Shown one piece after another: positions 191-52,194 of a stretch of 64,000 nt of DNA. The stretch is from a virus. The translations under genes and the position numbers were made by a program. The DNA lies in IMG/VR virus record IMGVR_UViG_3300036715_000468; one strand, 5' to 3'. Below the pieces are notes generated by a model. The model was not told the origin of the DNA. It ran no database searches and saw only the letters and a program-made list of their open reading frames with translations. The stretch's first letter is position 1, and each line of letters begins with the position of its first letter.

Positions 191-1408
191 TTACTTCTTA
201 GCTCTTACCGTTAAGTCTACACCAAGTTCTTTTGCAGTTTTAGCAGTCATTAAGTCTACTAAAGACGCCGCATTATTGCCGCCATTAGCTTGCCCGTTTC
301 CGCCCATAACTACAGCAGGACTCCATGCACCAGGCGCCGCTTTTTCTATAGCTTGAGCATACATTTGATTGATTTTAATCAATGCATCAATTTTTGGCGT
401 AAGTTGTCCGTCAGCTTCCATAACCAAACGCTTACGAGCAGCTTCACCTTCACCACGCAATGTTTCAGATTTCTTAAACGCTTCAGCTTCTTTCACACTT
501 GCATCAGCAATAACTACTCGAGCCTGTGCAGTTGCAATAGTCTTTGCATTTTCTACTTCCTGTTCCCATTTCGCTTTGGATGCATTAGCTTCGCCTTGAC
601 TAATTGTAGTCAACTTTTCTTGCTCTGCTTTGATAGAATTTGCTTTACTAATCTGAACCGCAGTTGTTGCTTTCTGACGCTCAGTGATTTGCTTTTCTAC
701 GTCATCGCTATACTTGATTTGATTGATAGACACAGCTTGCAATACTAGCCCGTAGTCAGTTAATTGGCTCGAACTTTCACGCTCTGGCTTACCGTGTTCA
801 TCCAATACAATCGCTACCATGTTAACGGTTTTGTCTAAATTAGTGATCGGATCTTTAACAACCGTTGCAACTGTTTTAGTCAAGTATGTTCCATGTGCTA
901 ATTGGTCGTCGATATATTTAGGAATGTCTGGTCGTTTCTCTGCCGAGCTTTCTGTCGATGACATAGTGGGGCCAACATTATAAATAACCTTCTGCACTGC
1001 TGTACGCATTAATTGCTGTTCAATTGCAACAATGCTACCGAAATCTCTATGTAGTCGAATAATTTTATCGCATGTCAGTGGCATGGCCCAATTAATGGTT
1101 CCAGAAATATTAGCATGGCCACCATCATTAAACCGAGTTTGGATAGATTCATCGATCGGTTTACCCTGATCCATAGTTGCACTAAATGAAAATTGATCGC
1201 GGCGCGAGTAAGTAGTTATCTTACCCATACCCTGCCACGACCAACCTGGCTCAGTCAAACATGTCATGTTGCCGCTAATACTTTGGCGAACTACGACTGT
1301 TTTTGCATCCACATTCGTCAGTAATTGTGGTAAGATAATTAGTGCAGCAAATAATACTATCACACCAATTACCATTGTGGCGATTCGCCCAATAGTTAAG
1401 TTCATCAT
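191..1408 (-). CDS. flotillin-like SPFH/band-7 membrane protein (YqiK/FloA-like)
   Basis: N-terminal TM helix, SPFH-like core, long Ala/Glu/Lys-rich coiled coil, Gly/Asn-rich C-terminus; architecture matches bacterial flotillins. Confidence 0.75.
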   Translation of the reverse strand: MMNLTIGRIATMVIGVIVLFAALIILPQLLTNVDAKTVVVRQSISGNMTCLTEPGWSWQGMGKITTYSRRDQFSFSATMDQGKPIDESIQTRFNDGGHANISGTINWAMPLTCDKIIRLHRDFGSIVAIEQQLMRTAVQKVIYNVGPTMSSTESSAEKRPDIPKYIDDQLAHGTYLTKTVATVVKDPITNLDKTVNMVAIVLDEHGKPERESSSQLTDYGLVLQAVSINQIKYSDDVEKQITERQKATTAVQISKANSIKAEQEKLTTISQGEANASKAKWEQEVENAKTIATAQARVVIADASVKEAEAFKKSETLRGEGEAARKRLVMEADGQLTPKIDALIKINQMYAQAIEKAAPGAWSPAVVMGGNGQANGGNNAASLVDLMTAKTAKELGVDLTVRAKK

Positions 1409-10967: not shown

Positions 10968-11849
10968 TCACGATAAACCTGCATATAAATGCATTTGTAA
11001 GTTTAATTTGAATCCGTAGTCCATGCAGTAACGAGCAGTAAATTTATGATTCTTTTCATTTGCCGCTAAATTTAACACACCTGGTTCCCAGAAATCAATA
11101 ACTTCATCAACAGTGCTACGTTCTGCCATTGTAATTGTGCCTTTTTCGGCGCGGATTAATTTAATAGTTTGTGGTAAGTCATTATAGATATTCATTGGGC
11201 TACAATAAATATCCTTCCCTGTGCGTTCTTTCCATTCGTGCGCCCATTGTGGCACTTGATTATATGGAGACCCTTCGTCGACGCTCATCACAAATTTAAG
11301 ACAGTCTGCGCGATCTAAAATAGTCTTGCTCGGTGCTAGATACTTAACAGCTACACCGTTTTTCTCTGCACATTTCGGCGAACAAACTAAGGTAACACCT
11401 TCGGGTACTAGTGTATCCGGTGTACCGTTACTTTCGACCTGAACTGCTTTAAATGTTGCTAATTGCTTAGTCATAAATGCACTAATATTATCTTGTAACA
11501 ATGGTTCCCCGCCGGTCATCACTAATACGATATTTGGATATTTAATCGAATTAGATCCGTTAGGTAATGCCCACATTGGAACCGTCTTACCTTTATCATT
11601 CCAATAATCACATATTGTGTGATACATTTTAGATTCGATTTCGTCAAAGGTTAACCAATCACCATCATCAAAGAATGTATCACAGAATGAACAATCTAAG
11701 TTGCACTTAGCTAAACGGATGAACAAAGCCGGCATGCCGGAATAAGGACCTTCGCCCTGGAGTGTAAAGAACATGCTTGTTACAAACAAACTATCTTTAG
11801 GTGCATCCTTAAAAAACTTCTTCCCAACAATTTCATTAGTTCCAAACAT
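10968..11849 (-). CDS. queE: radical-SAM 7-carboxy-7-deazaguanine synthase (QueE-like) with a C-terminal extension
   Basis: FFTLQGEGPYSGMPALFIRLAKCNLDCSFCDT: the QueE-specific TLQGEG box followed by the CxxxCxxC radical-SAM cluster. Confidence 0.8.
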   Translation of the reverse strand: MFGTNEIVGKKFFKDAPKDSLFVTSMFFTLQGEGPYSGMPALFIRLAKCNLDCSFCDTFFDDGDWLTFDEIESKMYHTICDYWNDKGKTVPMWALPNGSNSIKYPNIVLVMTGGEPLLQDNISAFMTKQLATFKAVQVESNGTPDTLVPEGVTLVCSPKCAEKNGVAVKYLAPSKTILDRADCLKFVMSVDEGSPYNQVPQWAHEWKERTGKDIYCSPMNIYNDLPQTIKLIRAEKGTITMAERSTVDEVIDFWEPGVLNLAANEKNHKFTARYCMDYGFKLNLQMHLYAGLS

Positions 11850-11912
11850 GATTTATTTTCCTTAATATACGTAAGTATAGCACATTGCTTATAGTTAAGC
11901 AACTATCTATAA

Positions 11913-12209
11913 TTATTTCTTTAATCGTTGATCCCATGTATGCATATACTTCGACAGACGTGTAAATTTATCTGCTTTAGCAGTTTCTATGCCTTCCCAA
12001 GTTAATCCGAAACCCGAATTTACAACAAGCTCGAGCATTGCTAAGACATCTCCGATTTCGGATTCTAAGTGATGTAAATTAGTCTTACCGTCTACTCTTT
12101 TTCCTATCAATCCGAATCGCTTAATCTTCGATGCATCCTGTATTATTTCTGCACATTCTTCTTGTAAAATATTAAGACATTCTTCCTGGTGTTCATTTAT
12201 GTGTTTCAT
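11913..12209 (-). CDS. mazG: MazG-like nucleoside triphosphate pyrophosphohydrolase
   Basis: EECAEIIQ ... ESEIGDVLAML, the all-alpha NTP pyrophosphatase EExxE/D motifs; 98 aa. Confidence 0.65.
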   Translation of the reverse strand: MKHINEHQEECLNILQEECAEIIQDASKIKRFGLIGKRVDGKTNLHHLESEIGDVLAMLELVVNSGFGLTWEGIETAKADKFTRLSKYMHTWDQRLKK

Positions 12210-12519
12210 CTGGGCCTTTAGTGCTTACAAGTTTTTCTATTATTTTATATGCGTCATATGCTTCTTGCAATGCCGGATATTTTTCCTGCATGGTTTCATT
12301 TGGTTGTAAGATTGCTAACCGTTTCTCTAATGCCTCAACCCTTGCTGTAAGTTTATCATATTCAGCGTTAGTTGGATATGACGTCCATGTTGCACCACTC
12401 GTACTGATGCCTGTTACATATTGTGATGTTGCTGCTGCTGATGGATAAACTGTTGTCATTGTATTAGTCACTGTTGCCATATTAATAGGATGGCCGCCCG
12501 TAGAATTCATATTACTCAT
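12193..12519 (-). CDS. hypothetical protein
   Basis: 108 aa, Thr/Ser-rich N-terminus. Confidence 0.4.
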   Translation of the reverse strand: MSNMNSTGGHPINMATVTNTMTTVYPSAAATSQYVTGISTSGATWTSYPTNAEYDKLTARVEALEKRLAILQPNETMQEKYPALQEAYDAYKIIEKLVSTKGPDETHK

Positions 12520-12808
12520 TTGGAAATTTTATCCTAAAAATTAATGCATCGTCTGGATCTTCGAATCCATAAAATACTGATTTTAAATCGTAACATCCTG
12601 ATTGGAAATCTCCATCGTATTTTATGTCGACCGAACCGTTACTGTGAAAATCTATCCAGTTTACCATCTCTGAATAATTTTCGTTGTACCTGTATTCGAG
12701 AATAGTTTTATATTTACTATCGAATACAGGTTGTTGTATTACTATTTCGGCCACTGGCACTTTTTTAGTGAATAACTGTTGTCGGAGTGTATGTAAGAGT
12801 TGCACCAT
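12512..12808 (-). CDS. small protein, member of the C-terminal motif family
   Basis: C-terminus ...FYGFEDPDDALIFRIKFPNE. Confidence 0.45.
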   Translation of the reverse strand: MVQLLHTLRQQLFTKKVPVAEIVIQQPVFDSKYKTILEYRYNENYSEMVNWIDFHSNGSVDIKYDGDFQSGCYDLKSVFYGFEDPDDALIFRIKFPNE

Positions 12809-13133
12809 TTTCAGAATCCTCGCTCACCTCTACCGATATTGCTCGACCTGCATATTTACTAGAAATATAATTGATCAAGTCTTCTGCAAGCATTTCACAG
12901 CTCATATAATCTATTTCAAGAATTGCTTCTTTATACAGACCCTCAAGTTCGCGCTTGAATAAGATAAACTCGATGTCTCTATCATTATGGAATACTTCGG
13001 TTGTTACACGGAAGTGAAACATATGTCTATGTGGGCTACGTAAGAATTCTACCCCTGTCGGAGCATCGGGATAACAGTGTATACCTTCCTTCATAAATGT
13101 TACAAATATTGTTCGTTTCATATTATTTTCCAT
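12765..13133 (-). CDS. possible 6-carboxytetrahydropterin synthase (QueD / PTPS-like T-fold protein)
   Basis: size of ~120 aa and an H-C...H-R-H-M-F pattern resemble the QueD zinc site; lies two genes from queE; the match is weak. Confidence 0.4.
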   Translation of the reverse strand: MENNMKRTIFVTFMKEGIHCYPDAPTGVEFLRSPHRHMFHFRVTTEVFHNDRDIEFILFKRELEGLYKEAILEIDYMSCEMLAEDLINYISSKYAGRAISVEVSEDSENGATLTYTPTTVIH

Positions 13134-13518
13134 TAATTATGTCTATTGTTTTAATAGAAGCCAGATACGGGTCATCGTATCTAATCTCTGCCTCCGCATA
13201 GACAGGTTTCCATGCTAGTGAATAAAACATGGAATAGTGCCTGTTCTTTCCAATTTTTCTAATTCGGAAAAGTAGTTTGGGACGACACATGCCTTCTCTT
13301 TCTTCGTATGTTACTGCAGAGAGAAATTTGCGCATTCGTGTAAGTGGTAGATTAAAAAGTAAATACCACCCGTCGGATACGTGATCGTGATCTAATGCAG
13401 TGCCGTCGGGTAGTCTTTCTATAATACATGTTGATTTAAAACATTCTCCAAAAACAGTAAGGTACGAGTCTTCAAACGCATCTCCTTGTTGTCTTGGTGT
13501 ATTTTTAAATAATTTCAT
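13123..13518 (-). CDS. hypothetical protein
   Basis: 131-aa ORF. Confidence 0.4.
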   Translation of the reverse strand: MKLFKNTPRQQGDAFEDSYLTVFGECFKSTCIIERLPDGTALDHDHVSDGWYLLFNLPLTRMRKFLSAVTYEEREGMCRPKLLFRIRKIGKNRHYSMFYSLAWKPVYAEAEIRYDDPYLASIKTIDIINGK

Positions 13519-13519
13519 A

Positions 13520-13705
13520 TTACTCCTTATCTACATAGCTGACTAATTTAATACTGGAGTTTGATTCGTCAAAACCTTCCGAACGGATCAATGACGATAC
13601 GTATTCGAGAACTTCATCACACCCAGTTTTACCTTCAGCTGTAGATTCTTCCCAGAATTCATCGCCGCCTTCATGTATAACTACTTCGAATACGTATTTT
13701 TTCAT
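13520..13705 (-). CDS. hypothetical protein
   Basis: 61-aa acidic ORF. Confidence 0.3.
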   Translation of the reverse strand: MKKYVFEVVIHEGGDEFWEESTAEGKTGCDEVLEYVSSLIRSEGFDESNSSIKLVSYVDKE

Positions 13706-14589
13706 TTTTTAGTCCTAGCTTTCTGTATAAGTTCTTTAGTTGACAATGGATCCTTTGTTGTTCCCGCTGTATATGCATCAGCAGTCTTTTCTGGCGATAC
13801 CATTGTTGGAATAATAGATTCTAAAGTTCCTTGTGTATCAGGCTTCAGTGATGTTTTAGTCGTAGTGTCAAGACCTAAGGTTCCGTCATTTAACACTGCA
13901 TCTACATCAAATGTTTTATTACTACCTGGAACAACTGCTGCTTCCACGGCTGCTTTAATTAGCTCGACTGCTTCTTTAGGTGAATTATTACCTAAGTCCA
14001 TATATACAATTTTGCGCTCTGGTTCTACAACCGAAGTACCTTCGATAATCATGTCATCGCCGTATTCTGCCCATCCGGTAAATCGGTTACTATCTGTAAC
14101 TTCTGCATGATTCATACACCATACGCCTGGATTAGTGGCAGCGAAATTGATATCATCAATCTTAATTGTTAAATTAGGACTAGATGTGTTCACATGTGGG
14201 ACCGGTACACTAAGGATAGGTACGAAGTTTCTACACTGCCATATACCCTTGTTAAGTATCTCTAATACCATAACATGTTTGTGTGCTGGATAATCAATCG
14301 ATACCATATAGCTCATATCGAGTAATGCCTGGATTTGTTTTTCCCAGTCGCTTGCTAATGTGTTACCTACCATGTACACACCATTTACTTTATCGACTGA
14401 ATCGAATGAACGATTTGCACTTAAAAAGATATGCTTACAGTTATGTTCTTTTGCATATTTAACTATTGTATCAGTATCTTGTAAGCCGACAACGAATAAT
14501 GTCTTCTTACCGAATGCAGTTGTTTGCTCAATCTCTGGTCCGACGAAAAATGTTGCGCCTTCATGACCTTTTCTTACGAATTGTTCCAT
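13702..14589 (-). CDS. hypothetical protein of the modification island (Rossmann-like N-terminus, Thr/Lys-rich tail)
   Basis: 295 aa; N-terminal GATFFVGPE...KKTLFVVG; 4-nt overlap with the upstream glycosyltransferase gene. Confidence 0.45.
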   Translation of the reverse strand: MEQFVRKGHEGATFFVGPEIEQTTAFGKKTLFVVGLQDTDTIVKYAKEHNCKHIFLSANRSFDSVDKVNGVYMVGNTLASDWEKQIQALLDMSYMVSIDYPAHKHVMVLEILNKGIWQCRNFVPILSVPVPHVNTSSPNLTIKIDDINFAATNPGVWCMNHAEVTDSNRFTGWAEYGDDMIIEGTSVVEPERKIVYMDLGNNSPKEAVELIKAAVEAAVVPGSNKTFDVDAVLNDGTLGLDTTTKTSLKPDTQGTLESIIPTMVSPEKTADAYTAGTTKDPLSTKELIQKARTKK

Positions 14590-14590
14590 T

Positions 14591-15682
14591 TTAATTCCTT
14601 ATTAAATTGTTTATTAAATCTGTTGCTGTAGAATATTTTTTTAGACGAGTCATATGTTCTTCTAATTTTATTCTGTATGTATCATAGTGTGACATTACAT
14701 CTATAATTTTATCGATAATATCTTGTTTATGAATTTTATATAAATCAAATGTTTCAGTCCACTCCGACGGATATAAAAAATCTGTGTTGTCAAACATTTC
14801 CGAATAACTTAGTCTTTCCGGAATAAGTGGGATGGTACCCAAAACAGGTCCTTCGATTCCGGTCGAGATTCCATAAGTCTCTTGTTTACTAGCACTAAAT
14901 ACCATTTTAGATTCGCCTAAAAGTGTATGATATTCGTGCTTACTAAGCTGGTTATCCTGGCACACAACAAACTCGTATTGTGGTAACGATAATGCAAGGT
15001 CTCTGAAGATTTCCACTTGTTTCTCTGGTGCAATTCTATGTGGAAACAATATAAGATCACGCTTTACTAAATTTTTATATGGAGCTAGTGTATCTTCCAT
15101 ATATTCCATTGGCCACCCCGTCCGTATAATTTTGCCATTATCGAGCCAATCTTCGACGCACGATCCGTTCGAATTTAATAAATTCCAACAGAACATATTG
15201 ATGTGAAAATCTGTAGCAAAATAGTTGTGATCTAATGCATGGAATATAGCTTTTTCGGTGTGTTTTACCCAATCTTTATTGCCAATCAACCTACCTAGGA
15301 AATCATGGCTATCCCAACTACCTGCGTGAAATAGTCCATGGAATTTCCAATTAAGGTTTAACAAATCCGACATATATCTAAGCTGTATGATAATAGGATT
15401 CCATGCATCTGTAAATAGAAATTGATCATTAATCGTAGTTTCACCACGATTATAATAATCTAGAAAATTACATAACTGTGAACTTTTCCAATAATTCGTA
15501 TCAGAAAAATTCAGAAACGCGCCAGGGGTCACTATCGTATTTTTCTGTATACCGTCGATCTGTATTACGTTAGTCTGCGTGTCAACCGCAGACCTTAGTA
15601 GTTCGGGTATATGTTCGTGCCATTGAGCAGTATATCTCGTTTCTAGTGGTTCGATAGAAAATACCCATATTGTTTGTTTCAT
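14591..15682 (-). CDS. GT-B fold glycosyltransferase (GT1/GT4-like)
   Basis: C-terminal KQETYGISTGIEGPVLGTIPLIPE fits the E-x7-E donor-binding motif of retaining GT-B enzymes. Confidence 0.5.
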   Translation of the reverse strand: MKQTIWVFSIEPLETRYTAQWHEHIPELLRSAVDTQTNVIQIDGIQKNTIVTPGAFLNFSDTNYWKSSQLCNFLDYYNRGETTINDQFLFTDAWNPIIIQLRYMSDLLNLNWKFHGLFHAGSWDSHDFLGRLIGNKDWVKHTEKAIFHALDHNYFATDFHINMFCWNLLNSNGSCVEDWLDNGKIIRTGWPMEYMEDTLAPYKNLVKRDLILFPHRIAPEKQVEIFRDLALSLPQYEFVVCQDNQLSKHEYHTLLGESKMVFSASKQETYGISTGIEGPVLGTIPLIPERLSYSEMFDNTDFLYPSEWTETFDLYKIHKQDIIDKIIDVMSHYDTYRIKLEEHMTRLKKYSTATDLINNLIRN

Positions 15683-16605
15683 TAAGAATAAGCCTCCGTG
15701 CCATAATTGATATATCCTCTTCCGTAACCCGGTGCTCTGTGCAGCCCTTCTGAAAACGCTAACTCTACTTCTGTTTCCCTATCGTAAGACTTACACCAGA
15801 GTGTGCTAACATCGATTAATCCGTCCTGAATCATCGATACAGCTTCTTCCATATAACTATAGAAATGCTCGTTACGTGGACTAGGAAACTTAATATTAGT
15901 AGCATTCCATAAAAATTGTCCAAATGTAATATTTGCAGCAGGGTGTTTTTCAGCAGCAAGTATAATAGTAGCACGTTCCGCATACAAGTTCAAGTCTAGA
16001 TACTCTGGTTTCTCTGAAATATCTATTACGTATTTGAATTTCTTACCCGCTACTTCCTCTACCGAAACCAATTTAGCATTAGTCTGTTTATTCCAAAATT
16101 CTTTATTAGAATTACCTACAACAGTTACTTGAGCAGGTTGGTGCGTATTCATGTTACTCAAATAAGTATAAACAACTGTGGATAAGAATCCAGAACCCAT
16201 AATTAGTATTTCTTCGCCAGCCCAAAATCTTAGTGAGTTTGCAATATTGATAGCACATGCAACTGGTTCGATAATGTATTTAGGCAATAGTTCGGGAATC
16301 TTTACAAACATGCGGTCCGGACAATTATAGTAATCGGCAAATGCTGGCTCGCCACGTGTGGCAACAAAATCACCCTCCTTAATATTTCTGATACTATTAC
16401 CTACTTTAGTAACTATACCGACACTTTCGTGACCTTGTATAGTTTTAGGCAATAACTGAAATGTTCCACAATACATATCGATATCGGATCGACACATGCC
16501 TGTAAAGACAGACTTTACTTCGATTTCGTTTGATGTAATTTCGGGCTTGTCCCACTCTTCGTGGATTATGTCCTGTTTACCTGTTGTATAAAATAGTCTA
16601 GTCAT
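15682..16605 (-). CDS. zinc-dependent medium-chain dehydrogenase (MDR/ADH superfamily)
   Basis: GMCRSDIDMYCG plus GHESVGIV (structural and catalytic Zn motifs) and GSGFLSTV (Rossmann). Confidence 0.7.
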   Translation of the reverse strand: MTRLFYTTGKQDIIHEEWDKPEITSNEIEVKSVFTGMCRSDIDMYCGTFQLLPKTIQGHESVGIVTKVGNSIRNIKEGDFVATRGEPAFADYYNCPDRMFVKIPELLPKYIIEPVACAINIANSLRFWAGEEILIMGSGFLSTVVYTYLSNMNTHQPAQVTVVGNSNKEFWNKQTNAKLVSVEEVAGKKFKYVIDISEKPEYLDLNLYAERATIILAAEKHPAANITFGQFLWNATNIKFPSPRNEHFYSYMEEAVSMIQDGLIDVSTLWCKSYDRETEVELAFSEGLHRAPGYGRGYINYGTEAYS

Positions 16606-17464
16606 CGAATGCCTCTAAGAATTCATGGATCTGAACATCCATGTCGTATGTATTTGTTGTATCTTGTAACATAACACCGTATGCTGCGGCTGGACATAAT
16701 CCAAAATTCCATTCGTATGTTGTGCCGTCTCTGAAAAATAGTGTAATAGATTGCTTATCGTATCCTTCTTTCCATGATGCAGATAACTTTAATGTTACAT
16801 TTCCAATCGTAGTTGCTGCAATTGCAGTATCGTCTACATTATATGTGCCTGTCGGATATACTGATCCATAATCAGTAGAGGAGATACTACCTAGGTTCCA
16901 GCGTTGATAAGCAGCTTGTTCGAATTTTGCTGACTTAAGAGCTTCGGTGCCAAATAGTTTAAGTGCAAAACAATATAGGTGTGGCATTAAGTCTCTCGAT
17001 ATTCCGCCAAATGCAAATTGTTTATGTGTAAACCAGCTACCTGGATTCGGGATACGGTTACCGTTCAGCCAGTTGATGTCTACACCGATAACTTCTTTCT
17101 CTTGTATTAATCTGAATATGTCACCGTAATTATCACGATACATATTATTCTTAACCATATGGAATTGTGTATCACTATATGTTGTGCATAGATCTTTCCA
17201 ACCGAATGAATCTTCCAGACCCGGCTTCTCTACGAAAATACGCTTTGTGCCCGTAGCTGCTAATCCTTCTGCAATCTTACTATGTGTAAAATTTGGAGTG
17301 CAAATTACAGCTATGTCGAATGGTGTTGTTATTTGAGATACATCCCTGTAATTTGCATTAGGTGTTGCAGCATCTAAAATAGATACTTCATATCCTAACT
17401 TATTTAATTCCGGCCAATACACATTGGCGCCAATTCCGCCGAACCCGGCTAATAATGCTTTCAT
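16598..17464 (-). CDS. Gfo/Idh/MocA-family NAD(P)-dependent oxidoreductase
   Basis: N-terminal GFGGIG Rossmann motif and the family-typical EKP motif (FVEKPGL). Confidence 0.65.
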   Translation of the reverse strand: MKALLAGFGGIGANVYWPELNKLGYEVSILDAATPNANYRDVSQITTPFDIAVICTPNFTHSKIAEGLAATGTKRIFVEKPGLEDSFGWKDLCTTYSDTQFHMVKNNMYRDNYGDIFRLIQEKEVIGVDINWLNGNRIPNPGSWFTHKQFAFGGISRDLMPHLYCFALKLFGTEALKSAKFEQAAYQRWNLGSISSTDYGSVYPTGTYNVDDTAIAATTIGNVTLKLSASWKEGYDKQSITLFFRDGTTYEWNFGLCPAAAYGVMLQDTTNTYDMDVQIHEFLEAFDD

Positions 17465-17473
17465 TGTTTTCCT

Positions 17474-17722
17474 TTAATGTTTTAATACATATGCAAGGGC
17501 ATCTTCGCCCGATAACAATACTGTGTCGTGTGGATACACAAGCCATCCATCGCCACGTTTGTCGTGTATCGATAAGACTCTCATTTGTTTTGGAGTCATC
17601 TTTCGAATAGAACAAACTACCATAGCATTATGCCTTGCAATTGCTACATAGTTACCGAGTGCTAACTCGTGTCCTAATATATCTTTGTGTTCAGGGAGTA
17701 TTTTTGGTTTTTTTGTCGGCAT
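17474..17722 (-). CDS. hypothetical protein
   Basis: 82-aa ORF. Confidence 0.35.
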   Translation of the reverse strand: MPTKKPKILPEHKDILGHELALGNYVAIARHNAMVVCSIRKMTPKQMRVLSIHDKRGDGWLVYPHDTVLLSGEDALAYVLKH

Positions 17723-18041
17723 CTATTCTTAGTTCTCGTATAATCATTGCATCAATTTCAGCAGTAATCTGTGTTGCGAGTTTATCACAAATTTCATCTT
17801 CTAAACTATCATATTTCGATTTGGGTGGCGCTGATAATCTTTTGATGATTTCGTCGGCTTCCTCATCTTTAGTTAATCTAACATTTCTTACATATGGCAT
17901 ATGTATCAGGGCCTCGCCTACTGACCAATTTGCTGATAACTTTCGTGACATGGCCACGACTTCAGTTTTCTCTATCCTGATATTCATCAGCTTTGTTTTT
18001 AACCGACGAATTATTTCATCGCCCTCTTCGTCATGCGTCAT
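17691..18041 (-). CDS. hypothetical protein with an internal duplication
   Basis: two ~50-aa repeats each starting DEEGDEIIRRLKTK / DEEADEIIKRLSAP. Confidence 0.45.
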   Translation of the reverse strand: MTHDEEGDEIIRRLKTKLMNIRIEKTEVVAMSRKLSANWSVGEALIHMPYVRNVRLTKDEEADEIIKRLSAPPKSKYDSLEDEICDKLATQITAEIDAMIIRELRIDADKKTKNTP

Positions 18042-18330
18042 AGTTAATTTGCCGTATCAACTTATCGCCCATCCAATGTGACGACATTTCGCTATCGTCT
18101 GTAGCAAGAACTTTTAACATCTTATCGAATTCTTTCTTAGAGATTTCGCGGCCGTCGATGATAGTTTCACCGAGACATTTTTGTGTAACTGGCTCAAACA
18201 AATCATCCTCGCTACCGGATTCGAGCATCACAACTTCATCATATGCATGTGTCAGTTCATCGGCTTCGACAACATAACGATGTCTGAATGTAACAATTGT
18301 GTCAACTAGGTATAATTTCTTCTTGGTCAT
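18031..18330 (-). CDS. hypothetical protein
   Basis: 99-aa ORF. Confidence 0.4.
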   Translation of the reverse strand: MTKKKLYLVDTIVTFRHRYVVEADELTHAYDEVVMLESGSEDDLFEPVTQKCLGETIIDGREISKKEFDKMLKVLATDDSEMSSHWMGDKLIRQINYDA

Positions 18331-18686
18331 GATTTTAGTGCCTCAAAAATAGCATCCCACCGTTCTGCAGGTGTTTTACGTTCCTCGTCTACAAGTGCTG
18401 CAACAGTTTGTGCTTCACCTTCTGGTAGTTTGAAATAAATATCTGCATAGGTACAATCAAAATCAGAATCCTCATCACTATCATACCACGGATGTTCCAT
18501 AGCCATATCAAATACCTCTTGATAATCTTCACGGTTACCGCCACCGCATCGTGTATGAACAACAATGCACCCATCTTTAAGATAGACGTCACGAAATCGT
18601 CCAAAGTCGCCGGTTGTTAACTGAAGTAAATTCATTAATTGTGCAGTATTTGGATTGACACCGTGTACCATATTATATAAACTCAT
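18327..18686 (-). CDS. hypothetical protein
   Basis: 119-aa ORF. Confidence 0.4.
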   Translation of the reverse strand: MSLYNMVHGVNPNTAQLMNLLQLTTGDFGRFRDVYLKDGCIVVHTRCGGGNREDYQEVFDMAMEHPWYDSDEDSDFDCTYADIYFKLPEGEAQTVAALVDEERKTPAERWDAIFEALKS

Positions 18687-18958
18687 TTTACGTCCTTTAA
18701 AATATCTAATATAGATTCTTCATATTCATAGTCTGTAACAAAAAACATTCTATCCACTAAACTAGGAAATCGTCTGTAAGTTGATTTACGTAAAATAGAC
18801 TCTAACCATATTGTATCACCGTTTGTAAGTTTTACCGGATGCCATGCAAACCATGCATGCCAGTTCGTAGAATCCTTACGTAGTTTATATTTCCATTTCA
18901 TAGTTTCCCTTCGAGTTCGTACACACGAGATTCTAGGCGTGTCAGTGATTTCCGCCAA
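18683..18958 (-). CDS. hypothetical protein
   Basis: 91-aa ORF. Confidence 0.35.
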   Translation of the reverse strand: MAEITDTPRISCVRTRRETMKWKYKLRKDSTNWHAWFAWHPVKLTNGDTIWLESILRKSTYRRFPSLVDRMFFVTDYEYEESILDILKDVK

Positions 18959-19116
18959 GTGTCTTGCAGACTAAAATAATAATCACGTTGCCTTTGATCT
19001 AAACTTTTAACGAATTCTCTATTGCTGTCATTCGTTAAATATAGTTCGTCGACTCGTTCTTGGCTAGATGTGTCACGTTCAAACAAATCTGCAAACAGCC
19101 ATTTTAACATTTTCAT
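18898..19116 (-). CDS. hypothetical protein
   Basis: 72-aa ORF. Confidence 0.3.
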   Translation of the reverse strand: MKMLKWLFADLFERDTSSQERVDELYLTNDSNREFVKSLDQRQRDYYFSLQDTWRKSLTRLESRVYELEGKL

Positions 19117-19943
19117 ATTTCAAATTTCCTCGCTAAGTCATAACTCATTCTAAACCCGGATGCATGTTCGTGCCCGCCGCCATCGAACTGCACAGCAATG
19201 TCACCTACATGCACACCGTTTTCTTCTGATCGTAGACCAAATTCACGACCGTCGGGCTTATCGTAATAGTATACAGCAAATGGTTCGTTCTTTGCAAGAG
19301 CGTGACACATATCGGAACCATACATATATGGAACGTTTGCAGCAGGCACATTATATCCCGCAATATTCATTCTACGAACTACAACACCCATTAGCTCCTT
19401 AATGTTTTTAGCCTGGGCACGTTCAATAGCTGTACCTTGCAGAACCTGTTCATCCAAATTCTGATTAAATAACATATCCCAATTTTCGAATGTATAATCG
19501 TAACTGAATATGTTTGCCTGTATTTCGCGTGTTCCTGGCAATAAGAATTTCCAACGATCCCGATCATCAATGTGTTTAATGAATTGTGGTACTTCGATTG
19601 CAGGATAGAAATATTTCCACGTTAACATTGCGCCGCTCTCAGTATTAGCGGGGCTATAGAATTTTTCAAAATTGGATGGGTTAAAATCTGCCAAATCTCG
19701 AATAGCAGTATCGTGGTGGTCGATGTGAATTACTTTTAATGCTTTACTTGTTAGTTCTTCCATTACAGGAAGTTTATAGCTAAAGTCTACCATGTAGACA
19801 ATCTTGCCCGTAACATCGGGCGGTGTTGTTTGATAAAAACCTGCGTAAAATTCCGCATCCGGGTGTATCTTACTTACGATCCATGCTGCTGTGAATCCGT
19901 CTGCACAGTTTCCATGATACACCACTATTATTTTACTCATCAA
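19113..19943 (-). CDS. DHH-family phosphoesterase (nanoRNase / RecJ-like catalytic core)
   Basis: YHGNCADG (DHH motif I/II) and KVIHIDHHD (DHH motif III). Confidence 0.7.
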   Translation of the reverse strand: MMSKIIVVYHGNCADGFTAAWIVSKIHPDAEFYAGFYQTTPPDVTGKIVYMVDFSYKLPVMEELTSKALKVIHIDHHDTAIRDLADFNPSNFEKFYSPANTESGAMLTWKYFYPAIEVPQFIKHIDDRDRWKFLLPGTREIQANIFSYDYTFENWDMLFNQNLDEQVLQGTAIERAQAKNIKELMGVVVRRMNIAGYNVPAANVPYMYGSDMCHALAKNEPFAVYYYDKPDGREFGLRSEENGVHVGDIAVQFDGGGHEHASGFRMSYDLARKFEI

Positions 19944-20010
19944 ATTTCCTTATCTTATTATACTTTTCATATATTTCTTCTATTTCTAAAGGATTCGTGA
20001 TACATGCATA

Positions 20011-20199
20011 TTATACTATTTTATGTTTATTTAGAAACTCATTTAAACTTGTTTTATTATCTTCTAAGTATAATCTAAGGAGTGTTAGGGAGAGTCGATT
20101 TGTGTCACCTATACTCTCAGTATCCATTAGTGAATCTGCACATCTTAGTGCATCGAATATATCTATGCTTGTAATCGGGTATTCTTGTAAATTTCTCAT
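20011..20199 (-). CDS. hypothetical protein
   Basis: 62-aa ORF. Confidence 0.3.
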   Translation of the reverse strand: MRNLQEYPITSIDIFDALRCADSLMDTESIGDTNRLSLTLLRLYLEDNKTSLNEFLNKHKIV

Positions 20200-20430
20200 T
20201 TATTTTCCTTTAGATTGCATACTTTTATGGCGTATATTGCGTCCATGTATTCTGTGAGGCTTGCTCATATATTTTGGTTCGCAGTCTGCAAATACTGAAT
20301 GGGCACAAATAAGCCCATTCAGCATACCATGCATATATTGTACACTCGGATCGTGTGCATGTATACAATCCGTTTGTATTCCGATAAGTCTCTCTAAAGT
20401 GCTAAGGTCTTTTTGTAACTTCTCATTCAT
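20200..20430 (-). CDS. hypothetical small Cys/His-rich protein; start trimmed to an internal Met so that it overlaps the DpdA gene end by only 8 nt
   Basis: the track ORF 20200..20505 overlaps the DpdA 3' end by 83 nt in another frame; the internal start MNEKLQKD lies just after the DpdA stop. Confidence 0.3.
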   Translation of the reverse strand: MNEKLQKDLSTLERLIGIQTDCIHAHDPSVQYMHGMLNGLICAHSVFADCEPKYMSKPHRIHGRNIRHKSMQSKGK

Positions 20431-21985
20431 CTTCTTCTGCAAGGTGCATGTCATCCATATCAGCCATGTCCTGGACATCAGGTGCTTCCTCGACTGAGAC
20501 ATCATCGATTTTATGCCACATATCCTCTTGTCCCATTGTTGTGACTTGCTTCTTATTACCGAAACTAATACTTTCTAGGAATGCAGTATATTCTTCTAAT
20601 AAAGCACGTGGATTAGGTGTTGCTGGATCGAGTAATTTTTCAACAAAGGAGTTAAAATACAAAATGTTATTAGGAACAAATTCATCTTTATTAACAGGCT
20701 TCTTCTTTCCCTGGCGATACCAAGCACTAGGATCTACTGTACCAAGTTTTGCATATGCAACGTCAGCTAATCGATTGATTTCCTGAACTGCATCGATATG
20801 GTTAAAAACGTTGTGCGCCATTACAAGTGCATAAGAAGTTGTGTCCCAGCTTGTCTTACCTTCCTTACCATGCTTGTTTACGTCACCCGGGCCCATAACA
20901 CAGATGTCACCTACTGTTAATCTGTTGTTAATAGGTCCACCGTATGGCATCGCATTTTTAGATTTAGTAAATCCTTTATTGTCTATACCTTTACCCATAG
21001 AATAAGTAAGTCTATCTGCGCTGAAGTGAGTATAATCATAAGATAATGCATACCCACCGGCTGCTACGAATGGCGAAGCAGCATCAAAACTAATACTTAG
21101 ATTTGGGTTATCATGTTTCTTAAGTTGGCGTTCAATCGATGTTAAATAACATGCCCAGTCAAGCCTACCGATACCAAGGAAGTGAATCCAATCCTTCCCT
21201 GCTAACATATTATCGTCACGTAAGTCAAGAATACGACTTAATGTAGTTTTCATTTGTCGCATATTACAACCAGCAAACGCATATCCCTCTAGTGTGCGAT
21301 CGCGTGTATAACCCATTGCTTCGACTGCGTCCGGCATACTATACGGAATAACTCGTTCATACCAGGTTTTAGAGTTGTCTGCATCACTGCCAGACAACAC
21401 ATTTAAAAACTTAGTTGCGCCTGGTACCCTATTACTCATAAAGTATTGCAAATTATACTCAGTTACATCCAAGCAATCTTCGAAACAAGTTAGTCCAGTC
21501 TTTGCACCGAATGGTGGTGTCCACGCAAACGCTGGAACATCGAGTGTCATCGACCAGTCAGCTGTATGTTCTAAGTATCTAAGAATCTCTTCGCGTAACT
21601 TATCACCAGCCGGAGTCTTTACTGTTGTCCAGTCAAGTTTAATAACACCTGTTGCAATTTGGAATCCGCCACTATCACCGATAAGTATTGTTTTCTCTCT
21701 ATCTCGTCCGTGAATCATCGGCGCCGCACGATCACATTTTGCTAAATTTCTATTAGCGTGACCTGCAGAATATAGTCCATATGGATAATGGTAATACGAA
21801 TCTTCAGGTTTTAAGAAGTCGATTCCCTGTATTCCGTGTTCGAATTTTTCTGGCACTCGCTCTGGCTTAATATAATCTGCGATATTTTTGTCGTATCCTA
21901 GCTGTGTTACATAAAAACCACTGATGGCTGGCAAATATTTTGCCCATTTGCCGTCATCGTGCATCTTCCCTAAATCAATTCCCAT
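20423..21985 (-). CDS. dpdA: TGT-family 7-deazaguanine transglycosylase (DpdA-like DNA-modifying enzyme) with an acidic C-terminal tail
   Basis: ILIGDSGGFQIATG matches the catalytic DSGGFQ box of queuine/archaeosine TGT; sits in a phage with QueE; 520 aa. Confidence 0.7.
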   Translation of the reverse strand: MGIDLGKMHDDGKWAKYLPAISGFYVTQLGYDKNIADYIKPERVPEKFEHGIQGIDFLKPEDSYYHYPYGLYSAGHANRNLAKCDRAAPMIHGRDREKTILIGDSGGFQIATGVIKLDWTTVKTPAGDKLREEILRYLEHTADWSMTLDVPAFAWTPPFGAKTGLTCFEDCLDVTEYNLQYFMSNRVPGATKFLNVLSGSDADNSKTWYERVIPYSMPDAVEAMGYTRDRTLEGYAFAGCNMRQMKTTLSRILDLRDDNMLAGKDWIHFLGIGRLDWACYLTSIERQLKKHDNPNLSISFDAASPFVAAGGYALSYDYTHFSADRLTYSMGKGIDNKGFTKSKNAMPYGGPINNRLTVGDICVMGPGDVNKHGKEGKTSWDTTSYALVMAHNVFNHIDAVQEINRLADVAYAKLGTVDPSAWYRQGKKKPVNKDEFVPNNILYFNSFVEKLLDPATPNPRALLEEYTAFLESISFGNKKQVTTMGQEDMWHKIDDVSVEEAPDVQDMADMDDMHLAEEDE

Positions 21986-22019: not shown

Positions 22020-22772
22020 TTAAGCCTTGCCTGCAGGTAAAATATAGGAATATTTTCCTAAGCCACTGTCGATCTCAATTTTCATTGCACCGGAGTCTGA
22101 GAAGCTCATTGTCGACGAAGACGACGTCTCTGTCAATTTCAAAATACCTAACACCTGCGATAAAGGCCATGACCACTGATGCTTCATTGTACCTGATACC
22201 TTTTCTGCAAACGGTAATATTGTCCTGTCTGTTGGGCCAATACCAACACTAAAGATTAACGTATCTGTTGCATCAACACTTACTACGAAGCGTTTTTCGA
22301 AGCCACCTAAGGTTCCTAACATGTAAGACAACTCTGTAATCTTTTTCTTTTCCGGAGTAATTGTTACATTCCATGGTGCGCCTTTAAATGCAGGTACTTT
22401 AATCTGTTCATTCACCATTGTCTCGCTCATGAAACGATAGTTAGATAGGTGCCCACCACCACTGGAAAATTTAATTTCTGTTGGCGCATTTGCACCGTTA
22501 CGCATTTCGGATACGATTTCTGTTACAGCCTTTTCGCCTGAATATGGTGGAAAATCAATAAAGCCCTTCAATACTGCAATACGCGATAATCCTACTGTTG
22601 TATCGATGCCTGTGATTGGCTGGTATAAGCTACCGAAAATCACAACTGTCTTATCTGCGTCAATTGCTTCTATTTTTGCATCAGTTGTTGTTCCGATAAT
22701 TTTTACCATATCAATAAAGCCTAACGAATTCGTATGCTTAATGATGTCTTTCAAACTGTCTAATATGTTCAT
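22020..22772 (-). CDS. candidate sliding clamp (gp45-like); start trimmed to MNILDSL
   Basis: ~250 aa, directly downstream of the DNA polymerase; AAGGA RBS before the internal Met; loose N- and C-terminal pattern similarity to T4 gp45. Confidence 0.4.
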   Translation of the reverse strand: MNILDSLKDIIKHTNSLGFIDMVKIIGTTTDAKIEAIDADKTVVIFGSLYQPITGIDTTVGLSRIAVLKGFIDFPPYSGEKAVTEIVSEMRNGANAPTEIKFSSGGGHLSNYRFMSETMVNEQIKVPAFKGAPWNVTITPEKKKITELSYMLGTLGGFEKRFVVSVDATDTLIFSVGIGPTDRTILPFAEKVSGTMKHQWSWPLSQVLGILKLTETSSSSTMSFSDSGAMKIEIDSGLGKYSYILPAGKA

Positions 22773-22999
22773 GTTGTTTCCTTGTTTAATAGTTGTGTTT
22801 TTGGTCGTAATGTAATGCATGTATTTCTTGGATCAGTACAAATATAATAATCTGTCAATAATTCAGTTGGCACTGATCCATAAATCATTTCAGCAATATT
22901 AGGATCCATTCGACCGGGTATAATAGCATAAAATTGATTGTTCATTGTGTGTCCTTTAATGCTGTAGTATATAGAATTTCAGTAAGAAAGTCAAGGATT

Positions 23000-25951
23000 T
23001 CACATGTTACTGAAATCAAATAATGTCTCTAAATGTGCATGTTCTTTATTTGTTCTACTAAGATCCCATTTAAGAACACCTAACAAGTTTTCTACCTTCT
23101 TATCTACGATACCTGCCATCATATCTTCACTATCGAACGGGAGACTCAAGAACCATTCCGGCAAATGTGTTTCATCGACGGGATAAGCAATACTTGATAA
23201 TCTATTTTCACTTGTTTCTTTTAATTTACAAATAATAATCTTTTGTCCATCGATGATACGCATAGCATGTTGATCCATATGAACTTCTTTTAACCTATTC
23301 CATGCAAGGCTGGCCGTTACGTGTCCAGGTACATGTAAATTACCTACATGAATCCCTTTCATCTTTTTGAACCCTGCATCTTCAAGTTTGTCTTTATAAT
23401 GAGTTAACTTATTAACTGAACGAGGTGTACCTTGTTGCCACGGTTTCATATCTTCAAATTTTTCTTTGAACAAACGAACCTTCTCTATCACAGCGTTCTC
23501 GCCCTTGTCTGTAAGAGTATCCATCAGTATGTCTGACAAGAATTTTTGCACGAATTTCGGTGTATCTGCGCGTTTTAAATCAAGACCCATAGCCTTTACT
23601 TTGCCTACTTTGCCAGCAACGTCAAGTCTAATACCATCCTTGTCATACATCAAACAAGCATAACGCTTCTTAACCATCCATATACCTGTCTCAGATACTG
23701 TTTCACGTGAACTAGCAATTACACCGGTCGAACGCTTAACTGGCACATGCAAACTAGATAATAAGAATTCGGGAAATGTTGCTGATACAGCTTTAGCTAA
23801 ATCATTATATAAATCCACAACACTTTCCTTTGTCCACAGGATATCGCCATTCTCGATTTCTTCTTTAAGACTAGGGTATGCCGAAAAATAACACGAGTCA
23901 GTATCGCCATATACTATTGACTTACCGTAATGATCATATTCGCCTGTGATCATTTCATTTGTTTTAGCAGCCATATGTTTAGTAATTGTTCTACCAGTTA
24001 AAGTAGTTGATTGCCCTAAGCGTTGATCGAAGAATCTGCTACCTGCATTCAATAACGCACCATATGCAGAGTTAAGGTTAATTTTCTTAACTAGTTGACG
24101 CTTGTCCCAGAAACTGATAATACGTGCTAAGACTGCTTGATCTCTATAAATTGCTTTACCATCCTTAACTGTTAAATTATGTTGGTTCATATATTGCACG
24201 ACACGCTTCTTATGACCCTCAGTAATAAGTTCTCGTAATTTTTTAGGCTTATATGATTCGGAATCTATATAAGGATTTGCCTTTATATCTGTATCACTAA
24301 TATCTTCTATACTAAACAAGTCGCTAGGTACTTTAACACCTGCCATTTTAGCATTATCCGATATATCCTCGTAATTAGTCATAATACCTTGCAACACTTT
24401 ACGTTCACTGTACCATCGTGTTAATAGACTAGGAATTACACCGTCAGCGTCAGTCTTAAAGATTGTCCCGTTTGCACTAATGCACCAAGGTTGACCTCCC
24501 TCAAAGATTAAGTCATGAAGTTCTTTGCCTGTTACTTCATACTCAGACCCGTCTTCCATATCGAGAATTAATTTGTTACCAATGTCCTCATTATAGAAAT
24601 CGTCCATTTCTAATACATGAAATCTATCATTCCACCACGATGCAAATGTATATCTGGCGCCTTTCGCTTCCCATGCTGCAATTGCTGTATTAGTGCGATC
24701 TAGTCTGATCTGTCCAACGATCATTTCTGGACTCATGTTCAACGTTCTAATAACAGACGGATACAAGGATTTCATATCTGTGCTACCAATCCATCTGTGG
24801 AATCCCTTCCTCGGTGTTGCTACCCATCCACCTGCTGCCCTTACGTCTTTTTCACTGCTAGTATGTTTCTTGTCAGGACAAATCATATTACGATTATGTG
24901 CTTCCATTAACACGTTTTGGTCTGTTACTGCAACCGCACCCATAACCTTAGGAATCAATACACAGCTAGAATGCGCAATCGAATTAGCTAAGTCGATAAA
25001 CTGTAATTTCTTATCAAGTTTATCTAACAAACGTGTATCTTGAAGGTTGTATTCTAAGAATTTCCTAAAATCATCGTTATACAATTCGTCGAGTGTTCCT
25101 TCGTATGCAATTTTTGTTTCGTCAAGTTCAATTTCTGCAATCGCATTTAACGCATAGCTATGTCGTTCTTCATAGTTGTATTGTTTGTAAATCTGCATAT
25201 AATCCATCGAAATTCGACCAATTAAATCATATGTCAACGCTTCGCGACCACCACGTTCATACTTACGTTCTTTCGGCGATTGATCCCATAGACAGAGTCT
25301 ACGAGCTTCGTGTTTACCTAATACTTTCTTTATACGATTTACTACATACGGAATATCATACGCTTCTGAATTCCATCCCGATAATACATCTGCATCAGAT
25401 ATTACATCGATAAACGCATTTAGCATTTCAACTTCGGTCTTAAACAGAACTACATTACCTACTTCATCTGCAATTGCCGATGCTTCTTCCCACGTTAATG
25501 TCTCGGGAGGAAATGCTAGACAGATAATTTCGTCAAGCCATTGTAAATGAACCGATATAGCAGTTATATAATTGTCTGCATCAGCAGCTTCGGACCAACC
25601 TTCTTCTTTATCAAAGCTAGTCTCAATATCGAAAAAGGCTACATTTAGCGCAGGTGCTTCGCCCGAATGATAATTATGTTCTAAGCAACGTCCTATGGGA
25701 TTAACATCGGATTCCCATTTCTTAACATTACCTGACATTGTCTTAACTAATTTTTGTTTTTCAGTAAATGACTGTGGGACAATCTTCTTGAGTGTATTTC
25801 CATAGATTGATTTATGTGATCCACGCGGATCACTAACATAGAAATGATAGTCGGGCGGATATTCTTTATAAACTCTTTTACCGTTTATACGTTCTACTAC
25901 CTTAATTACTTCTTCTTTGCCGTTCCTGTTAAAATAACTGTCGACATACAT
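23000..25951 (-). CDS. family-B DNA polymerase (T4 gp43-like)
   Basis: FDIETS (exo I), DMKSLYPSVI (pol motif A) and IVYGDTDSCYF (motif C, YGDTDS). Confidence 0.95.
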   Translation of the reverse strand: MYVDSYFNRNGKEEVIKVVERINGKRVYKEYPPDYHFYVSDPRGSHKSIYGNTLKKIVPQSFTEKQKLVKTMSGNVKKWESDVNPIGRCLEHNYHSGEAPALNVAFFDIETSFDKEEGWSEAADADNYITAISVHLQWLDEIICLAFPPETLTWEEASAIADEVGNVVLFKTEVEMLNAFIDVISDADVLSGWNSEAYDIPYVVNRIKKVLGKHEARRLCLWDQSPKERKYERGGREALTYDLIGRISMDYMQIYKQYNYEERHSYALNAIAEIELDETKIAYEGTLDELYNDDFRKFLEYNLQDTRLLDKLDKKLQFIDLANSIAHSSCVLIPKVMGAVAVTDQNVLMEAHNRNMICPDKKHTSSEKDVRAAGGWVATPRKGFHRWIGSTDMKSLYPSVIRTLNMSPEMIVGQIRLDRTNTAIAAWEAKGARYTFASWWNDRFHVLEMDDFYNEDIGNKLILDMEDGSEYEVTGKELHDLIFEGGQPWCISANGTIFKTDADGVIPSLLTRWYSERKVLQGIMTNYEDISDNAKMAGVKVPSDLFSIEDISDTDIKANPYIDSESYKPKKLRELITEGHKKRVVQYMNQHNLTVKDGKAIYRDQAVLARIISFWDKRQLVKKINLNSAYGALLNAGSRFFDQRLGQSTTLTGRTITKHMAAKTNEMITGEYDHYGKSIVYGDTDSCYFSAYPSLKEEIENGDILWTKESVVDLYNDLAKAVSATFPEFLLSSLHVPVKRSTGVIASSRETVSETGIWMVKKRYACLMYDKDGIRLDVAGKVGKVKAMGLDLKRADTPKFVQKFLSDILMDTLTDKGENAVIEKVRLFKEKFEDMKPWQQGTPRSVNKLTHYKDKLEDAGFKKMKGIHVGNLHVPGHVTASLAWNRLKEVHMDQHAMRIIDGQKIIICKLKETSENRLSSIAYPVDETHLPEWFLSLPFDSEDMMAGIVDKKVENLLGVLKWDLSRTNKEHAHLETLFDFSNM

Positions 25952-51361: not shown

Positions 51362-51495
51362 ATATCATCCCTTATAATACGTATATTTATATGAACTTAT
51401 AGAGATTATCTATCCTATCGAACATTATAATATTTTTCTTTATCGTTTAGTAATAATTATCTACGATATCACGGAGATAATTGTAAACACAAAAT

Positions 51496-52189: not shown

Positions 52190-52194
52190 GTATT

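Follow-up and report, generated by a model that had tools for sequence, protein, structure and literature searches.

What base does a phage make when it encodes both 7-deazaguanine synthesis and enzymes that act on sugars, and do the sugar enzymes belong to the same pathway? The question is raised by positions 10,968 to 21,985 of a 64,000-nucleotide stretch of viral DNA (IMG/VR virus record IMGVR_UViG_3300036715_000468; the whole stretch is called the window here). An initial annotation, made from the sequence alone, described this region as a 7-deazaguanine DNA-modification island with embedded sugar enzymes that possibly belong to it, and our analysis supports that description. We read the region, on balance, as a QueC-independent 7-deazaguanine DNA-modification module of a PA5oct-like jumbo phage, in which a glycosyltransferase (GT) is included. 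The pathway class is known, namely the phiST-type route to 7-deazaguanine (DG); new are a long branch of DpdA, a conserved GT together with a conserved protein of 295 amino acids (aa) that we call o295, and a variable set of sugar enzymes.

Searches and structure models place the products of the region at family or fold level, their catalytic residues are conserved, and so is the gene set. Nearly all window genes lie on the minus strand (GC ~38%); every open reading frame (ORF) named in the initial annotation was recovered on that strand with its coordinates unchanged, and the minus strand is that of all genes described below from within the region. Megablast found no nucleotide match to the 11-kb region among 50,697 phage records. 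Identical or near-identical proteins are present on several metagenomic contigs, and the window proteins tie the phage to the group of Pseudomonas jumbo phage PA5oct (Wroclawvirus), of which it is a metagenomic relative. A gene order is common to both: DNA polymerase, a conserved ~250-aa protein, gp168, further genes, QueE (gp162), further genes, and a 5'-3' exonuclease. One JGI contig (L014) overlaps window positions 51107-64000 at 99.992% identity and extends 8.1 kb beyond the window end. Relatives of the 520-aa protein of the region are encoded in >597 IMG/VR loci, 80 of which were surveyed by scoring module genes with BLASTP; gene counts are from the 35 of these 80 with at least 7 kb downstream.

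Predicted synthesis and insertion of the deazaguanine base

The gene at 10968..11849 encodes QueE, the radical S-adenosylmethionine (SAM) enzyme 7-carboxy-7-deazaguanine (CDG) synthase. The TLQGEG and CxxxCxxC motifs reported in the initial annotation are present (FFTLQGEG and CNLDCSFC), the protein matches phrog_2076 ('QueE-like radical SAM'; E 3.7e-45), and tblastn with it matched 268 phage records, mostly annotated as QueE. The searches with hidden Markov models that had been suggested as a check came out mixed: five NCBIfam QueE equivalog models were the best matches (E 6.6e-20 to 5e-8), and none reached its curated cut-off (71.5 bits vs 200), so that we regard this QueE as a divergent, phage-type enzyme. 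In a close relative (L006:16134-17996, Logan SRR29774567), QueE is 620 aa long and contains an intein (Intein_splicing, Hom_end_hint, PT-HINT).

The absence of QueC and FolE from the window, already noted in the initial annotation, was borne out by tblastn, which with queries from four phages found no FolE, QueD, QueC or QueF there. A search of the rest of the genome had been recommended, and it supplied part of the set: 6-8 kb beyond the window end, L014 encodes FolE (PF01227; NCBIfam FolE E 1.5e-39, below the curated cut-off) and a phage-type QueD (PF01242; 62% identical to that of phage ACP17), and thus the phage can make CDG. QueC and QueF were not found in the window, in the related loci (0/35), or, by annotation or tblastn, in PA5oct outside its 200-208 kb stretch, which, judged by its neighbours, holds tail and structural genes. 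PA5oct encodes FolE (gp231), QueD (gp226), QueE (gp162), DpdL (gp166), GT (gp167), and a DpdA-like protein (gp168). PA5oct gp064, annotated as a tRNA(Ile)-lysidine synthetase, was rejected as a hidden QueC, as tblastn with the QueC of phage phi3ST:2 finds nothing in PA5oct. Three T-fold paralogs occur in PA5oct: gp226 groups with phage QueD, gp166 is DpdL, and gp230 is a second PTPS-like protein (gp230 and gp226 are located at L012:19206-19724 and L012:21501-21971). The phage QueDs in this set read CxxxHG[YW], not CxxxHGH as in E. coli.

The 'QueD-like' candidate of the initial annotation (12765..13133) has the T-fold attributed to it and is not QueD: a QueD function was rejected because it is without the catalytic Cys motif and groups with DpdL. 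It is 36% identical (E 2e-20) to phiST gp040 (CGPG_00067), the protein named DpdL in the 2023 NAR paper (an equivalence taken from gene order), and it matches phrog_17812 (E 8e-31). What defines DpdL is LxxxHRHxF where QueD has CxxxHGH (PMC10516641); the window protein reads FLRSPHRHMF, and L31, H35, H37, and F39 are invariant in seven homologs. Homologs were found in 29 phage records, including PA5oct gp166 and ACP17 gp125. It has been proposed that DpdL is a CDG decarboxylase giving 7-deazaguanine, a base present as dDG in phiST DNA (PMC10516641), and we annotate the window gene as a predicted CDG decarboxylase of this QueD-paralog type. The context of DpdL is the same in the window with L014, in PA5oct, and in the related loci, with DpdA, FolE, QueD, and QueE present and QueC absent. 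Because DpdL occurs without QueC, as in phiST, we prefer, with moderate confidence, a DG-type product over preQ0, CDG, preQ1, ADG, or G+. Of the end products that the initial annotation had left open (CDG, preQ0, or a further derivative), the evidence therefore points away from the first two.

The base would be inserted by the product of 20423..21985, a long-form DpdA-like guanine transglycosylase of 520 aa. An AlphaFold model built from 40 homologs is confident (predicted local distance difference test (pLDDT) 82.8, pTM 0.85) and has the (beta/alpha)8 barrel (TIM barrel) core of tRNA-guanine transglycosylases (TGTs). A fold search, in which DpdA ranks first, assigns it to the TGT/DpdA superfamily, and structure matches in BFVD include phage DpdAs, for example phiST DpdA3. 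The DSGGFQ box cited in the initial annotation is present (as IGDSGGFQ), and the unusual length and acidic tail were likewise confirmed, residues 477-520 (~44 residues) being disordered (pLDDT <50). Across 61 homologs (26-51% identity), there is no variation at S73, G75, D104, S105, G107, P151, H268, G271, or D301, and conservation at D149 is 90% or higher. In hhalign, the family aligns to Z. mobilis TGT (reference sequence checked against PDB 1enu) at 85.8% probability, pairing SMTLD149 with MAFD156, HFLGIG with YLMGVG, and SFD301 with MFD280; the equivalence of D104 (DSGGFQ) with D102 (DSGGYQ) of that enzyme is read from the motif. Judged by these comparisons, the protein retains the nucleophile used by TGTs and the aspartates that bind the base. 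The Pfam TGT family PF01702, also among the searches suggested initially, gives no match for the window protein and weak matches in 4 of the 61 family members (best E 0.0045); since the accepted DpdAs of phiST and phi3ST:2 likewise have no Pfam match, this test discriminates poorly.

A profile search of 1.84 billion representatives shows that the 520-aa protein belongs to a large, uncharacterised family of 916 clusters at 50% identity. By hhalign, the family profile aligns to ACP17 gp123 (96.6% probability, E 5e-10), to phiST DpdA3 (CGPG_00065; 69.8%, E 4e-5, over only 83 columns), and to phi3ST:2 DpdA (22%), and gives no signal with 9g DpdA1. HMMER with the same profile does not recover phiST DpdA3, and Foldseek pairs the 520-aa model with this 259-aa protein at E 1.4e-3. 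With sequence links that are nil or weak, we do not assign the protein to DpdA1 or DpdA2, nor do we file it as DpdA3; from its alignments and model, we treat it as a separate, long-form branch within the DpdA/TGT superfamily and list it under none of DpdA1-4. ACP17 has been said to have dpdA, although the gene was not named (PMC10516641); gp123 is our candidate for it. A scan with two close peptide patterns found no close relatives in species-representative bacterial and archaeal genomes.

Three indirect pointers suggest that DNA rather than tRNA would be the substrate of the 520-aa protein: its replication-gene context, its co-occurrence with DpdL, and the restriction resistance of PA5oct DNA. 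The context is kept across the survey, with the polymerase in 74 of the 80 loci and the 266-aa protein directly upstream in 78. PA5oct DNA is reported to resist cutting at G-containing restriction sites and was described as "hypermodified on G", with no structure assigned; an END nuclease that otherwise hits only G-modified phages restricts PA5oct, and the authors noted a QueE and a PTPS gene without identifying the base (PMC12191111). We consider deazaguanine modification of DNA by the DpdA-like enzyme probable.

Although disordered, the acidic tail (20423..20560, ~45 residues) keeps short motifs across 40 homologs: 'LFG/MW' as an aromatic patch, P-x-x-[ED]-[ED]-[LM]-A, and, at the terminus, [ED]DLI-x-[LI]-DE. 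It resembles a docking peptide, whose partner, because the polymerase gene is adjacent, could be a replisome component or single-stranded DNA-binding protein. A 101-aa ORF (20200..20505) shares 83 nt with the 3' end of the 520-aa gene; the homolog in a relative has only 74 aa (59% identical), so that the real start is probably further downstream.

Glycosyltransferase, o295, and the conserved gene set

Across the 35 loci, DpdL is present in 34, a GT of some type in 34, and the o295 family in 33, with QueE in 26 and FolE in 25; in many of the loci where QueE or FolE is missing, the sequence is just truncated. Genes are typically arranged in the order polymerase, 250-aa protein, DpdA-like protein, o295, DpdL, GT, (GalE), FolE, further genes, QueE, and exonuclease. 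The GT is of the window type in 25 loci and of a second type, 23-24% identical to it and in the same position, in nine. ACP17, with a polymerase only 24% identical and different neighbours, retains QueD, FolE, the o295-like protein, DpdA-like protein, GT, DpdL, and QueE together as a block.

The window GT (14591..15682; 363 aa), a conserved member of the module, is a GT-B/GT4-like enzyme ('GT_A' type) with the two-Rossmann GT-B fold and a C-terminal nucleotide-sugar binding domain. Its fold resembles those of a pterin glucosyltransferase, the glycosyltransferase of phage HY126, and the T4 DNA alpha-glucosyltransferase, and is nearer to generic GT4 enzymes than to the last of these. Homologs lie between the DpdA-like gene and DpdL in both PA5oct (gp167; 41% identity, E 3e-85) and ACP17 (gp124; 36% identity, E 3e-64).

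Adjacent to it, the gene for o295 (13702..14589; 295 aa) is a further member of the module, one that the initial annotation had not flagged. The protein consists of a ~170-aa domain and a tail rich in T, S, A, and K, and its function is unknown: neither alone nor as a profile did it give a meaningful match in Pfam (40 members), PDB (profile), or PHROGs. Its homologs adjoin the DpdA-like gene and DpdL in related loci, and it is 30% identical to ACP17 gp122 (E 1e-15); it has no similarity to PA5oct gp167 or ACP17 gp124. Two candidate identities were rejected for want of any relation, a DpdB/ParB-like partner (phi3ST:2 gp51) and the phiST gp041 ATPase. The tail, an extra ~110 residues that make up the C-terminal third (13702..14030), is absent from most homologs (167-190 aa), and the closest relatives (258-275 aa) have a shorter version.

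The two oxidoreductases noted initially are both present, a Zn-dependent alcohol dehydrogenase (ADH)/MDR-family enzyme (15682..16605; 307 aa; PF08240 ADH_N, E 1.9e-10) and a GFO/IDH/MocA-family enzyme (16598..17464; 288 aa; PF01408, 25.1 bits against a cut-off of 24; PF22725, E 1e-5). The nearest PDB sequences of the former are xylitol, sorbitol, and alcohol dehydrogenases, matched in the N-terminal domain alone; those of the latter are Gfo/Idh/MocA oxidoreductases, inositol 2-dehydrogenase, and the sugar-oxidising DgpA. Whereas the GT is conserved, these two form a variable accessory pair, always found together, in 5 of the 35 loci (6 of 80 overall), and relatives carry GalE instead: in 13 loci a short-chain dehydrogenase/reductase (SDR) follows the GT, and the two copies tested exceed the curated cut-off of the NCBIfam model for GalE, UDP-glucose 4-epimerase (291 and 329 bits vs 262). 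Because the GT slot is kept while its type is swapped, sugar-nucleotide enzymes are embedded in the cluster, and the block is conserved in ACP17, the gene set suggests that sugar transfer belongs to the pathway. It further suggests a UDP-hexose as donor, with a sugar that differs between phages. Between the oxidoreductases and the DHH gene described next, a small ORF (17691..18041) has a short local match (25 residues) to the major head protein phrog_138, and its counterpart in a relative (L008:13741-13968) is tagged PF07068 Gp23; it may be a capsid-gene fragment or mimic.

The initial annotation also counted a MazG-like protein and a DHH phosphoesterase within the island. Their families stand, and their place in its core does not: found in 7 and 1 of the 35 loci, respectively, they are lineage extras rather than core genes. 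The small MazG-like nucleoside triphosphate pyrophosphohydrolase (11913..12209; 98 aa) is an accessory, matching PF03819 with 22.2 bits (cut-off 22) and phrog_4856 with E 1.5e-16; at BLAST level it has no similarity to phiST MazG. The DHH/DHHA1 phosphoesterase (19113..19943; 276 aa; phrog_4771, E 1.5e-89) is also carried by close relatives (L007/L008) and probably lies outside the module. Another MazG-like pyrophosphohydrolase, larger than the first (48418..48840, minus strand; 140 aa; PF03819, E 6.7e-8), is 40% identical to PA5oct gp206, which adjoins a dCMP deaminase; the phage thus has two MazG-type enzymes.

Proposed pathway and its alternatives

In the pathway that we propose, FolE and QueD would convert GTP to CPH4, from which QueE would make CDG, and DpdL, by correlation and the precedent of phiST, would convert CDG to DG. 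The DpdA-like enzyme would swap G in phage DNA for the deazaguanine by the covalent-intermediate mechanism of TGTs, with Asp301 as nucleophile and Asp104 and Asp149 binding the base. Base exchange may be coupled to replication, given the fixed position of the gene beside that of the polymerase and the conserved acidic tail. The GT, probably with o295, would then add a hexose-type sugar from a UDP-sugar to the deazaguanine, on DNA or as the free base. Perhaps o295 prepares or presents the acceptor, which might be a hydroxyl that it installs; alternatively, N2, O6, or a carbon of the ring could receive the sugar. Natural products include 7-deazaguanines glycosylated at N2, for example huimycin and the dapiramicins. 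The GFO/ADH pair here, and GalE in relatives, may tailor the sugar or its donor. CDG synthesis and base exchange are argued from family and fold assignments and conserved residues; what points to the glycosyl step is the conservation of gene neighbourhood. The initial suggestion of a glycosylated base is strengthened by the presence of a GT in 34 of 35 loci and in ACP17, yet we hold glycosylation of the modified base only tentatively, at slightly less than even chances. More tentative still is the generalization that a widespread clade of jumbo phages (PA5oct-like phages and their many metagenomic relatives), together with ACP17-like phages, carries glycosylated 7-deazaguanine, with the sugar varied through swapped GTs or donor-tailoring enzymes.

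Several points weigh against this pathway. The chemistry assigned to this phage and its relatives is inferred: that DNA is acted on, that the base is DG, that it is glycosylated, and with which sugar at which site. The 520-aa protein has no match in Pfam, PHROGs, NCBIfam, or PDB sequences, as a single sequence or as a profile, so that its assignment to the TGTs is based on fold and motifs. Its sequence is without the canonical TGT zinc motif CxCxxC...H; after D301 there is a single Cys (C362), which is not conserved across the wider family. The decarboxylase activity of DpdL is a prediction, and expression of dpdL with dpdA from phiST or ACP17 in E. coli gave no dDG, other enzymes possibly being required (PMC10516641). 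DG offers no obvious hydroxyl, and an O-glycosyltransferase would therefore need an extra step or an unusual N- or C-glycosylation. Because most of the 35 loci represent one phage lineage, co-occurrence partly reflects inherited synteny and not independent selection. Finally, there is one clear exception to the module, the 310-kb contig L027 (IMG/VR 3300020277_000001), which has the DpdA-like gene and QueE with no DpdL, GT, or o295 within 10 kb; a GFO/ADH pair (L027:4232-6155) lies upstream of its DNA polymerase, and DpdL, GT, and o295 are absent from the 20 kb examined.

The most serious competing explanation, which we consider unlikely, is that the DNA contains plain dDG as in phiST, and that the GT, o295, and the sugar-nucleotide enzymes merely accompany the cluster and have an unrelated role, for example in modifying glycans of the host envelope, proteins of the phage, or a different base. 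phiST does make dDG without any GT, the lack of an obvious O-acceptor on DG would cease to be a difficulty, and GT4 enzymes usually act on sugars, lipids, and small molecules; the synteny, too, may be inherited, as the loci mostly share ancestry (the DNA polymerases of those examined are 41-87% identical). This explanation sits less well with a GT that lies inside the cluster, between DpdL and FolE/QueE, in 34 of 35 loci and is swapped for another type, not lost, or with the distant ACP17, where the o295-like, DpdA-like, GT, DpdL, and QueE genes are contiguous in a different neighbourhood. The failure of ACP17 DpdL and DpdA to yield dDG by themselves in E. coli also fits missing partners.

Two further alternatives concern the transglycosylase. 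That the base enters as a dNTP through the adjacent polymerase, with MazG removing dGTP and the TGT-like protein acting in salvage or nucleotide-level exchange, seems improbable. The two MazG-like genes of the window (11913..12209 and 48418..48840), the tight linkage of the module to a DNA polymerase, and a free ADG nucleoside reported in CP220-infected cells (cited in PMC10516641) would suit such a route, but no phosphoribosyl- or deoxyribosyl-transferase or base-specific kinase was identified in the cluster, the small MazG occurs in only 7 of 35 loci, and the family strictly retains the catalytic triad of TGTs. Moreover, the partial, motif-like restriction resistance of PA5oct fits sequence-selective exchange after replication. 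Least probable is a TGT acting on host or phage tRNAs, with phage DNA not a substrate: the 520-aa protein has no zinc motif and no module for tRNA binding, PUA or other, there is no tRNA gene in the window, and the neighbouring genes are those of replication. The gene is found together with DpdL, and DG is known from DNA alone; PA5oct DNA behaves as G-modified, and the BFVD matches include phage DpdAs such as phiST DpdA3.

The proposed pathway names the likely complete gene set of PA5oct (FolE, QueD, QueE, DpdL, long DpdA, GT, and o295 where present) and, in the conserved partners GT and o295, a possible reason why DpdL and DpdA failed in E. coli. If it is correct, a sugar-decorated purine analogue would for the first time be reported from a genome, extending DNA glycosylation beyond pyrimidines to such a base. 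The proposal would also add a new transglycosylase branch of 916 sequence clusters and reveal a new enzyme family (the ~170-aa o295 domain, which may create or present the acceptor). A diversifying sugar "coat" would be relevant to evasion of restriction, CRISPR, DNA-glycosylase, and type IV defences, and to artefacts when metagenomes are sequenced. Phage DNA is known to contain eight 7-deazaguanine derivatives; to our knowledge, none of them is sugar-bearing, and no jumbo phage has had one identified chemically. Our literature searches found no glycosylated deazaguanine in phage DNA and no nucleoside mass spectrometry of PA5oct, a phage-therapy candidate. The question is directly testable in the cultured phages PA5oct and ACP17.

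Neighbouring genes and comparison with known systems

Upstream of the DpdA-like gene are the conserved 266-aa protein (22020..22820, minus strand; phrog_12062, unknown function) and the family-B DNA polymerase (23000..25951, minus strand), copies of which in relatives match DNA_pol_B Pfam domains. A sliding-clamp identity for the 266-aa protein was not confirmed by BLASTP against the RHph_I1_18 clamp, PDB, or PHROGs, and that label is a positional guess. The DNA polymerase of PA5oct is split by a homing endonuclease. Elsewhere, the window encodes DnaJ (36127..36927), PhoH (39472..40233), a sigma-70 region-4 protein (26288..27670), a clamp-loader AAA+ protein (42519..43457), and an SPFH/Band-7 protein (191..1408). 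ClpS, ClpP, and RNase T are in the part of L014 that overlaps the window, and its extension (L014:1-8144) encodes a ClpX-like ATPase, ribosomal protein S21, a caspase-like peptidase C14, and a YkuD domain protein. This proteostasis and translation gene set is host-like and unusual.

Among known systems, phiST (Cui/Hutinet et al., NAR 2023, PMC10516641) is the closest in pathway class. It encodes FolE, QueD, QueE, MazG, DpdL, and DpdA3 beside the polymerase, and its DNA contains dDG; CDG genes without QueC, DpdL, a TGT-superfamily transglycosylase, a MazG-type pyrophosphatase, and an adjacent replicative polymerase are thus common to both. It differs in its transglycosylase (259 aa vs 520 aa here, marginally similar), in having no GT, o295, or sugar-nucleotide enzymes, and in its polymerase (Pol III alpha vs family B in the window); the MazG proteins are unrelated at BLAST level.

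PA5oct gp162-gp168 and ACP17 gp122-gp126, from cultured phages, are directly homologous. The PA5oct cluster includes the DpdA-like gp168 (49% identical), GT (41%), DpdL (47%), and QueE, with no o295 homolog in the stretch compared. In ACP17, genes for the o295-like protein, DpdA-like protein, GT (36%), DpdL (48%), and QueE (44%) are contiguous, with QueD (gp119) and FolE (gp121) alongside. Unlike the window, both phages are without the GFO/ADH pair and the DHH gene, and most of their genes are annotated as hypothetical.

With the DpdA/TGT superfamily (DpdA PDB 7UI4, Z. mobilis TGT, phage DpdA1-4), the 520-aa protein shares the TIM barrel, DSGG(F/Y)Q, H/Y-x-L/M-G-x-G, and a nucleophile Asp in (F/Y)D; in addition it has a segment at the N-terminus and, at the other end, a long helical region and the acidic tail, and it is without a PF01702 match or a zinc site. 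For the GT, the known counterparts are the T4 alpha- and beta-glucosyltransferases, which act on 5-hydroxymethylcytosine (5-hmC), and the enzymes of systems with arabinosylated 5-hydroxy-dC, such as those of RB69, DLP3, and HY126, the last a phage whose DNA carries this modification. In all of these the acceptor is a hydroxylated or hydroxymethylated pyrimidine, whereas here it would presumably be a purine analogue, 7-deazaguanine.

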